The notes below the pieces were generated by a model, which ran no database searches, was not told where the DNA came from, and saw only the letters and a program-made list of their open reading frames with translations. From Candidatus Heimdallarchaeota archaeon (lineage in GTDB: Archaea > Asgardarchaeota > Heimdallarchaeia > Heimdallarchaeales > Heimdallarchaeaceae), in the NCBI GenBank assembly GCA_021399395.1, contig JAAFKJ010000042.1, forward strand, positions 1-31,812: a DNA stretch of 31,812 nt. Direction: 5' to 3'. This document shows positions 7,737 to 11,838 of the stretch, piece after piece. Every line of letters starts with the position of its first letter. Positions within the stretch are counted from its first letter, which is position 1. Both the position numbers and the translations under genes were made by a program.

Positions 7737-9182
7737 ATGACAGGGTTAGCAGAAATTAGTGAAGATACTACTGGGGCTTTCAAAAATTACATCTTCTTTT
7801 GGTCAGGACAGATGGTATCTTTATTAGGATCATCAATTGTCCAGTTTGTGATTATCTGGTGGATTACTATCAGAACTAGAAGTGCATTATATTTATCGAT
7901 AGCTAATATAGCAGGGTTCTTACCCTTCATACTTCTGACACCAGTAGCTGGAGTTTTTGTAGACAGATGGAGTCGCAAAATTCTAATTGGATCATCAGAT
8001 TTCCTACAAGCAGTGGTTACTGTTGGACTGGCTATGTTTTTCATATTTGAAAATACTATTTTCAATTATCCTAACTATGCTTTCAAATTTGATGTTGGGA
8101 ATTATATCTATAGATACGATAGAGTTTTAGCTAATACTGGACCCATGATATTCATCTGGGTAGTAATGGGATTCCTTGCGATTAGAGGTAGTTTACAGGC
8201 TTTCCAAGTGCCTGCAATTCAAGCTATAATTCCAATTATGGTTCCAAGAAAGCATCTTAATCGGATGAATAGTGTTGATTTCTTATTTAACGGGGTAATT
8301 GGTCTTATAGGTCCAGTTATTGCGGCTCTCCTTTTAGCTTTAAATTTTCTAGATATAGGTGATCTTCTATGGATTGATGTTATCACATTCTCAGTTGCAG
8401 TCGTACCACTAGTATTAATAAGAATCCCAAGTGTTACGAAAGCGGAGAAAAAAGAGAAAAAAGAAACAACTTTCTTTCAGGAATTCAAGGAAGGGATTGT
8501 ATTCATTAAGAACAAAAGAGGTCTACTTGCGCTTCTTGGAGTCTTCACAGCTGCTAATCTCTGTATAACCCCTCTATTTACATTGATCAATCTGTATATT
8601 TATGATGGACATTTGGGTAATGCTACGAACCTAGCGCTTGTTTTAGCGTTTTTCCAAGGAGGGATGATAGGTGCATCAGTATTAATGGTCATATGGAAAG
8701 GATTCAAGAAAAAGGTAATAGGTGTTGCAGGAGGAATTCTTGTAACATATATAGGGTTCTTACTAATCACATTTACACCTCAAGGATTGTTCTGGTTCAT
8801 GGGGATAGGTGGTTTGATAATGGGAGTATCATTACCTATATTAAATTTATCAAGCCAATTTATCTGGCAAACGGTTGTTCCAAAGGAAAAACTGGGTAGA
8901 GTAATGGCTGTTAGACAAACTCTTGCACAATTTTCTGCTCCATTTGGGATGATCTTATCGGGAATAATAGTTCACTTTATCGCAAAAAAAGCAGAGAGTT
9001 CAGGTACTGAAGTAAATGCCATAGCAACAATAAATCCAGTTTTCTGGGGGGCTATTGCACTCGGAACAGCAATGCTAATCTTCTCATGGTTCTTTACAAA
9101 CATGAGGCATGTTGAAGATGATTTGGATTATGATAAATCACCAGATGAACAAACATCTTCGGCAATTCAAGTTGATGAATGA
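7737..9182 (+). CDS. MFS transporter, DHA3/MefA-like efflux family
   Basis: FFWSGQMVSLLGSSIVQF, motif A GVFVDRWSRK, about 12 TMs, VPKEKLGRV. ATG 7737 follows AAAGGTG. The ORF-track start at 7557 overlaps the divergent gene. Confidence 0.9.
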   Translation: MTGLAEISEDTTGAFKNYIFFWSGQMVSLLGSSIVQFVIIWWITIRTRSALYLSIANIAGFLPFILLTPVAGVFVDRWSRKILIGSSDFLQAVVTVGLAMFFIFENTIFNYPNYAFKFDVGNYIYRYDRVLANTGPMIFIWVVMGFLAIRGSLQAFQVPAIQAIIPIMVPRKHLNRMNSVDFLFNGVIGLIGPVIAALLLALNFLDIGDLLWIDVITFSVAVVPLVLIRIPSVTKAEKKEKKETTFFQEFKEGIVFIKNKRGLLALLGVFTAANLCITPLFTLINLYIYDGHLGNATNLALVLAFFQGGMIGASVLMVIWKGFKKKVIGVAGGILVTYIGFLLITFTPQGLFWFMGIGGLIMGVSLPILNLSSQFIWQTVVPKEKLGRVMAVRQTLAQFSAPFGMILSGIIVHFIAKKAESSGTEVNAIATINPVFWGAIALGTAMLIFSWFFTNMRHVEDDLDYDKSPDEQTSSAIQVDE

Positions 9183-9188
9183 TGTGTA

Positions 9189-9211
9189 TTTGTCATGTTG
9201 GCATACTAACC
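9189..9211. repeat. Left imperfect terminal inverted repeat TTTGTCATGTTGGCATACTAACC
   Basis: 19/23 identity to the reverse complement of 10580-10602. Contains the tnpB stop codon. Confidence 0.75.
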
Positions 9212-10600
9212 AAACATGGTTGAGCTTGTTTCATAGATACTGTGGGTGTCATTCCTTGTGGGTCTACACACACTCTACGTGGGTACATCACATACCCTCC
9301 TACCCCGTTCACTTTACGCGAAGGTAAAGCTTTCGGATCGCTTTTGACTAAAATGTTGTACGCAGCGTTAACATCAGCGTTGATCCTATGTCCTAGTGCA
9401 GAGGTGAACAACCCTCTAGAAGAGCGCTTACCTGCATACTTAGCTCTTTTTTGGGAAGACTCATTATCTAGAAAACTGCTCTTGGAAGTATAATCTTCAG
9501 GAATAAGAACGATATGTATCCCTTGTTCTTCACACTTGTATTTCAGCTGATTGATAATTCTCAAAAATGGGATGGTGACGAACATCTGAGTGACTTTCTT
9601 ACCCAGATTCACTTGTTGCTTCCATTGGGGGTTATAACCTATGACCACCTCATGTAAGCCACGATTTACCAACAAATCTACTAGATATTTGGTGAGCTGG
9701 TGGAGAGCGTTCTTGAGTTTCCGTCTATACTTCTCTTTCAGTTTATAGTAGGCTAGCCCATAGACTAGCTTGTGCTGTTGTTTCAGTTGTTTCTTCTGCT
9801 GTTGGACATACTGTAATCTTAGTTTTGTTTGGAGTTTCATATAATATTGGATTATGGATTTTATCCCTTTTCCGTGATCCTTGATAACAATCGGTTGATT
9901 GCCGAGGTTATCTACGAAGGTCACGAGGTTGATGGTTCCTAAATCGATGGCACCTTTTCTTGTGTTCTTTTTTCTTAGCTTGGGGAGAAATTTCTCATAG
10001 ACTAGCTCAAGAGTGTATCCCACCTTTCTAGGGATAACCCTCACTTCTTTCAGTCGAGTGCTAGCTGTCAGACGTGTTTTATAGTAAAACCCCACTTTCT
10101 GTGGTAAGACTAGCCACCCATTCTTGATCTTAGCTTGTTGGTTGGTAAGAATCGCTACACTCTCCCCATCTTTAGGTTTATACTTAGGAGGTTTGGGTAG
10201 AGCGTAGAATTTCTCGGGATGGCGCTTCCACTCCTTCTGTGCTTGAAAATACGCTTTCCAATTCCTAGTTAGAAGTTTGAGGGTGTGTTGAGCTGTATGT
10301 GCTGGTAACACTCTATAACACTCTTCTTGGTTAAGAAGAGTATTAAGATCGTAATAGTTAAGGAAACTATTTTTTTTGTTAAGTGATTGTTTTACCAGAA
10401 AATTTGCTCGACTGTAGAGGTTTTTAACTTGATGACAAAGTTTGCTTAGAGTAGGCTGAAAAGGGAGTTCAATGCATTCTACTCTCAGTACTTTACTCAT
10501 CACTTTTCTCTTTGTTTTTTCCTATAAAAGCTCCCGTAATATCTTACTTTCAGTCTTGTTTTAAGTTGATGAGTAATACGTTTAATATGACTACATGACA
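9191..10600 (-). mobile_element. Non-autonomous TnpB-only element bounded by imperfect terminal inverted repeats
   Basis: TGTCATGT at 9191 and ACATGACA ending at 10600. Interior is visibly more G/C-rich than the flanks and carries no tnpA. Inserted between the MFS stop and a poly-T tract. Confidence 0.7.
9193..10503 (-). CDS. tnpB: RNA-guided endonuclease TnpB (IS200/IS605/IS607 superfamily), rearranged RuvC-II type
   Basis: KNLYSRANF, RNWKAYF...PKPPKYK, RuvC-I AIDLG, VVIGYN (Gly at the canonical Glu position), PEDYTSK (alternative Glu), RuvC-III NADVNAAYNI. Zn-finger cysteines absent. Confidence 0.93.
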   Translation of the reverse strand: MMSKVLRVECIELPFQPTLSKLCHQVKNLYSRANFLVKQSLNKKNSFLNYYDLNTLLNQEECYRVLPAHTAQHTLKLLTRNWKAYFQAQKEWKRHPEKFYALPKPPKYKPKDGESVAILTNQQAKIKNGWLVLPQKVGFYYKTRLTASTRLKEVRVIPRKVGYTLELVYEKFLPKLRKKNTRKGAIDLGTINLVTFVDNLGNQPIVIKDHGKGIKSIIQYYMKLQTKLRLQYVQQQKKQLKQQHKLVYGLAYYKLKEKYRRKLKNALHQLTKYLVDLLVNRGLHEVVIGYNPQWKQQVNLGKKVTQMFVTIPFLRIINQLKYKCEEQGIHIVLIPEDYTSKSSFLDNESSQKRAKYAGKRSSRGLFTSALGHRINADVNAAYNILVKSDPKALPSRKVNGVGGYVMYPRRVCVDPQGMTPTVSMKQAQPCLVSMPT

Positions 10601-10602
10601 AA
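10580..10602. repeat. Right imperfect terminal inverted repeat (reverse complement TTTGTCATGTAGTCATATTAAAC)
   Basis: Inverted match to 9189-9211. Confidence 0.75.
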
Positions 10603-10621
10603 AGTTATTCATAATCTTACC

Positions 10622-10651
10622 TTATTTCTTCACCTTTTCTTTTTTTTTCTT
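10622..10651 (+). terminator. Oligo-T archaeal terminator, probably the MFS gene terminator displaced by the insertion
   Basis: TTATTTCTTCACCTTTTCTTTTTTTTTCTT. It would begin about 30 bp after the MFS stop if 9191-10600 is removed. Confidence 0.5.
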
Positions 10652-10701
10652 CAAAGAAAAATCTTAATTACTTTAGCTATTTAGTGAGGTTGTGATTAAA
10701 A

Positions 10702-11838
10702 TTGAAAATCATTGTTTTAGGTGCAGGTTTAGTGGGAAATGTAATTGCCTTGGATTTAGCAAAAAACCCGAACAATAGAGTAACTGTCGCTGATATAAAT
10801 CAGGATATTCTTGATGATCTAAGTAACAAGGCAGACATTCAAACAATTTACGCAAATTTGTCAAATAAAGAAATGATACAAGATATTATTGAGGAATATG
10901 ATTTAGTAATTGGAGCACTCCCTGGATTTATGGGGTATGAAACTCTGAGGACAGTTATTGAAGCTGAGAAGAATGTTGTAGATATTTCTTTCTTCGAAGA
11001 GGATCCTTACAGTTTAGATGAGCTTGCAAAGGAGAAAGGAGTAACCGCTATAGTTGACTGTGGAGTTGCACCTGGATTGAGTAACCTCATACTAGGCAAT
11101 GTAAATAGTATATTAGATTCTACTACTAATTTTCTCTGTTATGTTGGAGGATTACCTCAAGCTAGAGAATGGCCGTTTGAATACAAAGCACCTTTTTCCC
11201 CTATTGATGTTATAGAAGAATACACTCGATTAGCAAGATATGTTGAGGAGGGTGAAGTTGTAATAAAACCTGCCCTATCTGAAGCAGAACTATTAGAATT
11301 CCCTGATATTGGTACTCTTGAAGCATTCAACACAGATGGTCTTAGAACTTTACTTAGAACAATGAATATTCCAAATATGAAAGAAAAAACAATGAGATAT
11401 CCTGGTCACATTGAAAAAATGAGAGTATTAAGAGAAACAGGATTCTTTGATAAGGAGCCAATTGAAATCAATGGTAAAGATATAATCCCATTAGAATTAA
11501 CTTCAAGACTTCTGTTCAAAAGCTGGAAAATGGAGGAAGGAGACAAAGACCTAACTGTTATGAGAATCATTGTTGAAGGGTCAAAGGAAGATCAAAACAT
11601 CCGTTATACATACAATATGCTAGATTATTATGATGAGGAAAATAAAGTAATTTCAATGGCAAGAACTACAGGTTATACTTGCACAGCTGTTGCTAGCTTG
11701 ATAGCTGATGGGATATTCAAAGACAAAGGAATAATTCCCCCTGAAATAATCGGAAAGAACTTTGAAGCTTTTGAAGCAATTCTCGAATATCTTGAAGAAA
11801 GAAATGTGGTTATCAATAGAACAATTGAAGAAATTTAG
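10702..11838 (+). CDS. Saccharopine dehydrogenase / L-lysine 6-dehydrogenase family protein
   Basis: IIVLGAGLVG, ALPGFMG, VDISF, DCGVAPGLSN, YVGGLP, EAFNTDGLRTL, EKTMRYPGH, MARTTG. Confidence 0.9.
   Translation: MKIIVLGAGLVGNVIALDLAKNPNNRVTVADINQDILDDLSNKADIQTIYANLSNKEMIQDIIEEYDLVIGALPGFMGYETLRTVIEAEKNVVDISFFEEDPYSLDELAKEKGVTAIVDCGVAPGLSNLILGNVNSILDSTTNFLCYVGGLPQAREWPFEYKAPFSPIDVIEEYTRLARYVEEGEVVIKPALSEAELLEFPDIGTLEAFNTDGLRTLLRTMNIPNMKEKTMRYPGHIEKMRVLRETGFFDKEPIEINGKDIIPLELTSRLLFKSWKMEEGDKDLTVMRIIVEGSKEDQNIRYTYNMLDYYDEENKVISMARTTGYTCTAVASLIADGIFKDKGIIPPEIIGKNFEAFEAILEYLEERNVVINRTIEEI

Follow-up and report, generated by a model that had tools for sequence, protein, structure and literature searches.

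The DNA considered here, below called the window, is a stretch of 31,812 nucleotides from a Candidatus Heimdallarchaeota archaeon (GenBank assembly GCA_021399395.1, contig JAAFKJ010000042.1, positions 1 to 31,812 of the forward strand). At the 3' end of a gene for a major facilitator superfamily (MFS) protein it carries an element of 1432 bp (9179..10610, minus strand), whose gene tnpB (9193..10500, minus strand) encodes a TnpB protein of 435 aa counted from an ATG, or of 436 aa from a GTG one codon upstream. No second open reading frame (ORF), a transposase included, lies within 9179-10610 besides tnpB, and therefore any mobilisation must be in trans, as an earlier note on this DNA, made from its letters alone, had proposed. 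That note had further reported inverted repeats bracketing tnpB and explained them by capture of TnpB by a different (DDE or recombinase) transposon family. Its observation is partly confirmed, being real but mis-bounded, and its interpretation is partly supported, although not as regards DDE capture. We regard the element as probably a non-autonomous, TnpA-less TnpB/omega-RNA element of the IS607 lineage, mobilised in trans, with an AT core and unusually symmetric ends as its variant features.

The source genome of the window comprises 201 contigs and is 81.8% complete. Together with 24 sister genomes it forms a genus set of 25 genomes (72-92% complete), which was complemented by an order set of 47 genomes and by public sequencing runs. 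Eight runs from four studies contain this DNA, no RNA dataset being listed among them; the runs were used at contig level only, and contigs cannot show rare forms. Ends are named with respect to tnpB, which is read from the minus strand, with the left end (LE) at the high and the right end (RE) at the low coordinate. 

Boundaries, target and empty sites

The element has 44 matches in its own genome (47 BLAST rows at a smaller word size), and homology among these copies repeatedly stops at 9179 and at 10613-10615, 10-12 bases outside the arms of the inverted repeat. These limits, together with the empty sites of sister genomes, define the unit of 1432 bp given above; if the AT shared by the two junctions is given to the other end, the element is 9181-10612 instead. 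In the orientation of tnpB, left junctions read flank-TTAT-GAA/AAA-...-TTTGTCATGTAGTCATATTAAA and right junctions ...ATGACAAAAACNCATCAT, after which unrelated flanks follow. Among 15 aligned LE junctions of the own genome TTAT stands in register in ten, with CTAT or ATAT in two more, and its frequencies are 0.8-0.9 per position in a set of 35 LE ends. This set and a corresponding one of 66 RE ends were picked by motif, include a few spurious rows and are unbiased only outside the motifs. The RE terminus is CATCAT (9179..9184, minus strand), a sequence at which 14 of 15 own-genome RE ends and, by reading, 34 of the 37 related RE regions listed terminate; the same ends occur in 49 loci from other Heimdallarchaeota metagenome-assembled genomes (MAGs). 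On the opposite side, LE junctions and empty alleles place the host target, which is also the predicted target-adjacent motif (TAM) of TnpB, at TTAT (10611..10614, minus strand; ATAA on the plus strand). The last two bases of this host TTAT, AT, recur at the RE terminus, and 3' of RE there is a weak A-rich preference.

ATAA on the plus strand can be assigned to the host because three empty sites in sister genomes keep it. At the first, sister genomes have the MFS gene right next to its downstream neighbour, and the closest sister reads ...GTTGATGA-AT-AAGCTC...; the occupied counterpart in the window reads ...GTTGATGA, then ATGATG...(element)...TTATTC, then ATAATCTT. The second involves a gene-less copy of 374 bp on own contig C171, which is missing from three sisters that keep ...G(A)ATAAAAA.... 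The third involves a copy of 383 bp on own contig C136, missing from one sister, which reads ...AAATTGTAAATG...; the own flanks, when joined, give ...AAATT-AT-AAATT.... At all three sites AT is present once in the empty and twice in the occupied state, with no further duplication. The element is thus a discrete 1432-bp unit, repeated many times; it sits directly 3' of a host TTAT and has TCAT as its last four bases, and AT is therefore common to host and element at both junctions. A TA duplication of the IS630-like kind was considered and rejected, as the first base of the RE flank in the window is T and AT stands only once in the empty site.

Several details of the earlier note change accordingly. 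Its statement that there is no obvious target-site duplication holds, in that no multi-base duplication exists and only AT is shared. The pentanucleotides GTATT and AAAGT, which it had taken for flanks, both lie inside the element, and the empty site, given as TT^AA, reads TTAT^N on the tnpB strand. It had also suggested that removal of the element rejoins the MFS stop codon to an oligo-T tract: the tract does follow in the empty allele, where a sister genome reads GAT GAA TAA before it, but the stop in the window is supplied by the element, whose RE terminus is ATGATG on the plus strand, with the TGA at 9180-9182 ending the MFS gene.

The last residue of the MFS protein does not depend on whether the element is present. 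The RE terminus gives ATGA on the other strand (9177-9184), which restores a stop codon when the element lands on A|TAA of a convergent gene. In the small sample of ORFs of at least 100 codons that read into an RE end, four of six usable cases stop exactly at that TGA; a seventh (on C144) was dropped as a contig-end artefact.

Inverted-repeat ends

The inverted repeat is subterminal and does not bracket the element exactly, as had been claimed. Its RE arm (9189..9209, plus strand) begins 10 nt inside the RE terminus and its LE arm (10582..10602, minus strand), with two GTCAT units 8 nt apart, begins 8 nt inside the LE terminus. The two arms are identical at 18 of 21 positions, or at 19 of 23 over the 23-mers originally compared, and the repeat is real: searched with up to 3 mismatches, the arm has exactly two matches in the 31.8-kb window, while none of 100 shuffles gave any. 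The repeats are conserved in dozens of copies across Heimdallarchaeota MAGs, with 0.8-1.0 per position for the LE repeat in the 35 LE ends (a set selected by that motif), and they look functional; on this point the earlier note is supported.

From AT inward, both ends are alike in inverted orientation, with 8 variable bases followed by a block of ~22 bp that contains two GTCAT units. When AT is counted, 28 of 32 positions are identical between the LE consensus of 35 ends and the reverse complement of the RE consensus of 66 ends, and the LE of one copy (L058) bears the outer 10 nt of RE type. With AT included on either side, the ends thus come close to true inverted repeats of ~32 bp, ATGA...TCAT. 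Further inward, LE has a conserved AATCA..TT.AA.

At RE, part of the repeat belongs to a hairpin of 8 bp with one bulge (9194..9218, minus strand), the 3' arm of which stops 15 nt short of the RE terminus; this 3' arm and the loop, together with ACAAA, make up the RE arm of the repeat. The hairpin is weak in the window copy (-4.1 kcal/mol, z 0.17, DNA fold), but in other copies it stands at the same place with arm sequences that differ yet stay complementary. No conserved hairpin was found at LE, with 0 pairs in 24 aligned LEs, and folded as DNA the LE of the window reaches only -1.5 kcal/mol (z +1.24), i.e. worse than shuffles. The earlier note had suggested comparing the boundaries of other copies with its repeats and looking for hairpin ends of the IS605 type; the boundaries turn out to lie outside the arms, and a hairpin is present at RE and absent at LE.

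A second family of TnpB-only elements, with a TnpB of 402 aa (L146:624-1829 on own contig C17; copies on C154, C145 and C95), likewise terminates in ...ACTCAT and has a TTCCGA motif close to either end, with two occurrences in LE. Ends built in this way may be common to this TnpB clade generally.

The tnpB gene, its promoter and the 3' module

TnpB matches the Pfam families OrfB_IS605 (PF01385, 37.7 bits) and Cas12f1-like_TNB (PF07282, 45.8 bits) and scores 144.9 bits, at a cut-off of 100, against the NCBIfam model for RNA-guided endonuclease TnpB (NF040570). RuvC-I D187 (IDLG) and RuvC-III D377 (NADVN) are invariant in an alignment of eight sequences. Alignment to Cas12f chains places G289 (VIGYN) at the position of the usual RuvC-II Glu, with an invariant E336 (PE.YTS), and, together with a check of invariant columns, indicates that the four zinc-finger cysteines are absent. 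The exchange of Glu for Gly with a substitute Glu, the NADXN motif and the loss of the zinc finger characterize large branches of TnpB, and have been judged compatible with activity, these proteins being probably active (PMC10691335).

Seven copies of the own genome (on C131, C15, C161, C170, C106, C189 and C63) have open frames of 426-471 codons. Their pairwise dN/dS is 0.07-0.17, at dS from 0.57 to saturated; tnpB is therefore under selection and the copies are old. TnpB is thus intact and under purifying selection. A similar pattern of many old, distinct copies is described for haloarchaeal IS1341-type genes (PMC3119063).

Some 20 nt before the start of tnpB lies a promoter-like box of archaeal type (10521..10530, minus strand; TTTATA with upstream purines). 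The surrounding block, ...ATATTACGGGAGCTTTTATAGG..., is conserved in the 41 LE regions listed and in the LE alignment, and the ATATTACGGGAGCTTTTATAGG box is presumably an archaeal TATA promoter. At the other end, a module of 165 nt (9179..9343, minus strand), which overlaps the 3' end of tnpB and RE, is the predicted omega-RNA scaffold. It recurs alone and within the gene-less short copies, and forms two stems with compensatory changes, four pairs being changed on both sides among 26 sequences; its single-sequence fold has a z of -1.64, and an Rfam scan of 8900-10900 at E<=1 gave no match. By analogy with other TnpB systems this module probably acts as a guide RNA, in which case the host DNA that flanks RE (9161..9178, minus strand) would be the guide portion of a read-through omega-RNA, as expected from TnpB biology (PMC10690162).

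Gene-less derivatives

Short derivatives of 370-470 bp have lost the gene and consist of ~100 nt of LE, with the repeat and the promoter box, fused to an RE RNA module of 130-165 nt. Those of the own genome are L148:597-979 (C136), L149:595-980 (C171), C23:10456-10827 and C197:6177-6643. In four sediment and cold-seep runs from two studies, contigs contain the corresponding joints (9310 to 10516, 9312 to 10522 and 9495 to 10468), and in run X1 the contig depth summed over 9267-9347 is ~45x that of the flank. The short gene-less copies look like promoter-plus-guide-RNA satellites that need TnpB in trans.

Transposases of related elements

When metagenome contigs were scanned with a family alignment, 80 loci of 35-78% identity were obtained. 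Directly upstream of tnpB, 11 of the 80 carry a gene for a serine recombinase, all at identities of at most 49% (35-49%), and two further loci show, by eye, remnants of the TnpA C-terminus; a Y1 gene beside tnpB was found at none of the 80. A serine recombinase of the IS607 type is thus the only transposase seen in cis with relatives of this TnpB.

One of these loci, L214, encodes a TnpA of 204 aa with a Resolvase domain, followed by a TnpB of 418 aa. The latter is 43% identical to the window TnpB over 393 aa (E 2e-102), and GYN and PE..YTS motifs occur in both; a terminal inverted repeat of L214 agrees at 12 of 14 positions by eye. In two pairs of such autonomous copies, located at different sites, the ends read, also by eye, ...AACAT and ...GACAT, and homology at LE starts at ...AT. 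In a quick maximum-likelihood tree the Heimdall family groups with serine-linked and solo TnpBs in a clade that is shallow and unresolved, while the Y1-linked TnpBs of the order and a resident TnpB of 647 aa sit on branches 3.5-7 long; such long branches are unreliable.

Search for the mobilising enzyme

The core of the repeat occurs in 21 of the 25 genus genomes, up to 37 times (reversed control, 0-2), and pairs of plus and minus cores among the matches listed are ~1.4 kb or 0.33-0.74 kb in size. A larger element with the same ends was found neither in a fuzzy scan of the own genome nor among the listed pairs of the 25 genomes. Hence the search for copies, empty sites and an autonomous partner that the earlier note had recommended yielded many copies and three empty sites, but no partner with the same ends.

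Y1 TnpA (PF01797) is present in none of the 25 genus genomes, the own one included; within the order it occurs in 7 of 47 genomes, where it adjoins unrelated TnpBs. The own genome likewise has no IS630-type DDE_3 (PF13358), no IS4-type DDE_Tnp_1 (PF01609) and no Cas1, other DDE families of Pfam not having been searched. The repeated families recovered by a self-BLAST of the genome combined with Pfam are only TnpB elements, IS607-type elements and ordinary paralogues, along with two Pfam-less protein families that are 38-58% identical to each other and not IS-like. The Pfam-less paralogues measure ~410-470 aa (L136, L137 and L138 on C6, C9 and C22; C126:280-1722; C170:45270-46682); several lie at contig ends, and one adjoins a TnpB copy on C170.

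An IS607-type TnpA (MerR helix-turn-helix and Resolvase domains) is present in two intact copies in the own genome, with matches in 18 of the 24 sister genomes. The resident autonomous elements (L106 at C28:22197-25793, C195:908-3626 and C132:63346-65739) combine a serine TnpA of 196-199 aa with an unusually long TnpB of 646-649 aa, and have a conserved ACTGT before LE and RE ends in GTGT or GCGT, for which the shared dinucleotide would be GT; solo RE fragments of them remain on C5, C152, C18 and C163. As source or partner of the window element they were rejected: a TnpB of the 436-aa type or the repeat core was found at none of 30 TnpA loci, and their ends, which share GT and not AT, are unrelated to those of the window element. 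TnpA variants of genome G002 are located at contig ends.

Two further proteins have an N-terminal Resolvase domain (243 aa, L033:1489-2217 on C86; 252 aa, L034:1207-1965 on C20). Each is single-copy in 23 of the 25 genus genomes, with identities of 84-92% and of 45-48% to the first, and they look like chromosomal serine recombinases rather than genes of mobile elements.

From the contigs of four public runs the occupied left junction and joints of internal deletions were recovered. A survey of archaeal insertion sequences gives, in the part available, no detail on this element family (PMC13343696), and the aloposons of Heimdallarchaeum, which are giant-gene elements, are unrelated (PMC8813620).

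Origin and mobilisation of the element

Under the reading that we consider probable, i.e. a TnpA-less IS607-lineage element moved in trans, a serine recombinase would bind the subterminal repeats, and exchange at AT would excise the element as a circle, in which the joined ends would constitute a crossover site, nearly palindromic around AT. Insertion of the circle at another (TT)AT by this enzyme could follow. The guide of the omega-RNA for TnpB would be read from the RE flank, and TnpB may cut the vacated joint of TTAT and flank, upon which the element would be copied back; an occupied site would be protected by the TCAT of RE, with C for T at position -3.

Several observations speak against this reading. 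A TnpA of the L214 type has no close homologue in the 47 genomes of the order, where only hits of 27-40% identity, to resident lineages, were obtained, and no tnpA accompanies any related copy examined with these ends. The resident IS607-type TnpA is paired only with the TnpB of 647 aa and with unrelated, GT-sharing ends. The AT core is palindromic and offers no polarity to a serine recombinase, yet TTAT is always on the LE side, and the ends exceed published IS607 ends in symmetry. Contigs of the four runs, which miss rare forms, contained no circle junction and no empty allele, and the own-genome copies are old, so that present mobility is not demonstrated.

Insertion 3' of a fixed tetranucleotide without duplication would equally be expected of a classical TnpB-only element of IS200/IS605 (IS1341 group), moved as single-stranded DNA by a Y1 TnpA in trans, with TTAT as the LE cleavage and target site and TCAT as the RE cleavage site. 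In line with this, RE has a hairpin 15-18 nt from its end whose arms have changed in a compensatory manner, TnpB-only elements are usually placed in this group (PMC3627910; PMC3119063), and the window TnpB (P0001) weakly matches a Y1-linked TnpB of the order (23% identity, E 9e-17). Nevertheless, we hold this origin to be quite unlikely: LE lacks a conserved hairpin (0 pairs in 24 LEs; fold z +1.24), the likeness between LE and RE is inverted and not direct, and Y1 chemistry does not require the same last dinucleotide at TAM and RE. Moreover, Y1 TnpA is absent from all 25 genus genomes, though 21 have the repeat motif, and the loci of relatives have Y1 in 0 and a serine TnpA in 11 of 80 cases. 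The near-symmetric terminal repeats of 32 bp, including ATGA...TCAT, would in turn be accounted for by a terminal inverted repeat (TIR) transposon of another superfamily (DDE or similar), bounded by them, with a 2-bp duplication of AT and an autonomous partner elsewhere. AT is indeed found once in empty and twice in occupied sites, the A-rich preference 3' of RE would make the target roughly TTAT(A)A, and TnpBs in DDE transposons as well as solo TnpBs sharing inverted ends have been published (PMC10691335), for which reason the idea of DDE capture is not a new category. AT, the sole candidate duplication, is equally the last two bases of the conserved TCAT terminus. Such an origin is highly unlikely in our view, as insertion is asymmetric, with an invariant-like TTAT on the LE side only (TT 0.8-0.9 there vs 0.4-0.6 on the other side) and no duplication beyond AT, and a symmetric cut-and-paste enzyme would not ensure that TTAT always adjoins LE. 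Neither DDE_3, DDE_Tnp_1 nor Cas1 was found in the own genome, whose repeated families contain no transposase apart from that of the IS607-type elements; none of the pairs listed corresponds to a larger element with such ends, and the relatives are serine-linked.

That the cognate transposase has been lost, the old copies being immobile or moved by a non-cognate host enzyme and persisting through TnpB/omega-RNA homing and selection on tnpB, is also unlikely. Own-genome dS from 0.57 to saturation at dN/dS of 0.07-0.17 would fit such a loss, as would the failure to find a cognate TnpA in the 47 order genomes; candidate enzymes would be the resident IS607 TnpA or the two Resolvase-domain proteins (243 and 252 aa), which 23 of 25 genomes share as single-copy genes, and haloarchaeal IS1341-type elements pose the same puzzle (PMC3119063). 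However, insertion sites vary between sister species and gene-less derivatives are many, the host recombinases have no link to the element, and the LE repeat, for which a coding or RNA role is lacking, is kept at 0.8-1.0 per position despite saturated silent sites, which argues for continuing use by a recombinase. It is, lastly, rather improbable that this TnpB family has no transposase of its own anywhere in the lineage and that the mover is an enzyme not yet linked to TnpB elements, e.g. one of the two conserved chromosomal small serine recombinases. If true, this conserved enzyme would act on the near-palindromic RE-AT-LE site made by the joined ends, and the element would represent a host-enzyme-dependent, TIR-bearing class of OMEGA systems in the archaeal group nearest to eukaryotes, with an architecture closer to that of a Fanzor in a TIR transposon than to anything described in prokaryotes.

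On the IS607-lineage reading, a 'TnpB with TIRs' that seems odd at first can be explained by known biology, with boundaries corrected by 8-10 bases per end. What is left is a sizeable multi-copy family of TnpBs under selection, present in 21 of the 25 genomes of this Heimdallarchaeal genus, for which the cognate transposase was not found in the genomes searched. A predicted TTAT TAM, a compact TnpB of 435 aa with a shifted catalytic Glu and without zinc finger, and an RNA module also make it a testable scaffold for genome editing.

Comparison with known systems

Fanzors in eukaryotic TIR transposons resemble the window element in that a TnpB-family nuclease lies inside inverted ends, but they were captured by elements such as Mariner, hAT and Helitron, which have transposases and duplications of their own (PMC3627910), and nothing alike is seen here. 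Among prokaryotes, Altae-Tran et al. (2023) describe DDE transposons with inverted ends that contain a TnpB, and also solo TnpBs whose ends are those of autonomous elements (PMC10691335). As in these, tnpB stands between symmetric ends and mobilisation in trans is presumed; unlike in these, there is no DDE partner found and no ordinary duplication, TTAT is one-sided, and the relatives are serine-linked.

With the IS1341-group elements and palindrome-associated transposable elements (PATEs) of IS200/IS605, e.g. in haloarchaea, the element has in common the presence of tnpB only, the absence of duplication, a fixed short target 5' of LE (shared also with IS607), and highly diverged copies within one genome together with short derivatives that keep only the termini (PMC3119063). 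Those elements are described as having palindromes close to each terminus but as lacking inverted terminal repeats (PMC3119063), unlike the window element with its hairpin at RE only and its inverted-repeat ends. According to Bao and Jurka, TnpB-only elements have neither TIRs nor target-site duplications and may be TnpA-deleted derivatives of either IS607 or IS605 (PMC3627910).

The IS607 family (IS607, IS1535, ISC1926, CboIStron) differs from the window element in several respects: no tnpA accompanies any copy seen here, the core is a palindromic AT instead of GG, the repeats are equidistant from AT so that the ends are almost true 32-bp TIRs, and TnpB lacks a zinc finger and carries Gly where the RuvC-II Glu would stand. 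The earlier remark that IS607 also lacks TIRs is too strong; terminal inverted repeats and duplications are indeed reported as absent, but imperfect inverted repeats near the ends have been published (PMC6188088). The same account (eLife 2018) mentions short motifs in direct repetition and reports GG both at the termini and within the target, in keeping with an exchange over 2 bp; in the model of Boocock and Rice, the joined ends in the circle form the crossover site around the overlap dinucleotide (PMC4058570). The window element shares with this family a tnpB with a 3' guide-RNA region (predicted here), the lack of target duplication at its three empty sites, imperfect inverted repeats near the ends with short direct repeats (two GTCAT units per end), and one dinucleotide common to both junctions and the target, AT here and GG in the published cases. 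Its nearest transposase-bearing relatives have a serine TnpA. The likeness includes the termini: the IS607 element of C. botulinum has TGGG as target and TAM and TCGG as its RE end (PMC10690162), so that TAM and RE end differ at position -3 only, exactly as do TTAT and TCAT here.

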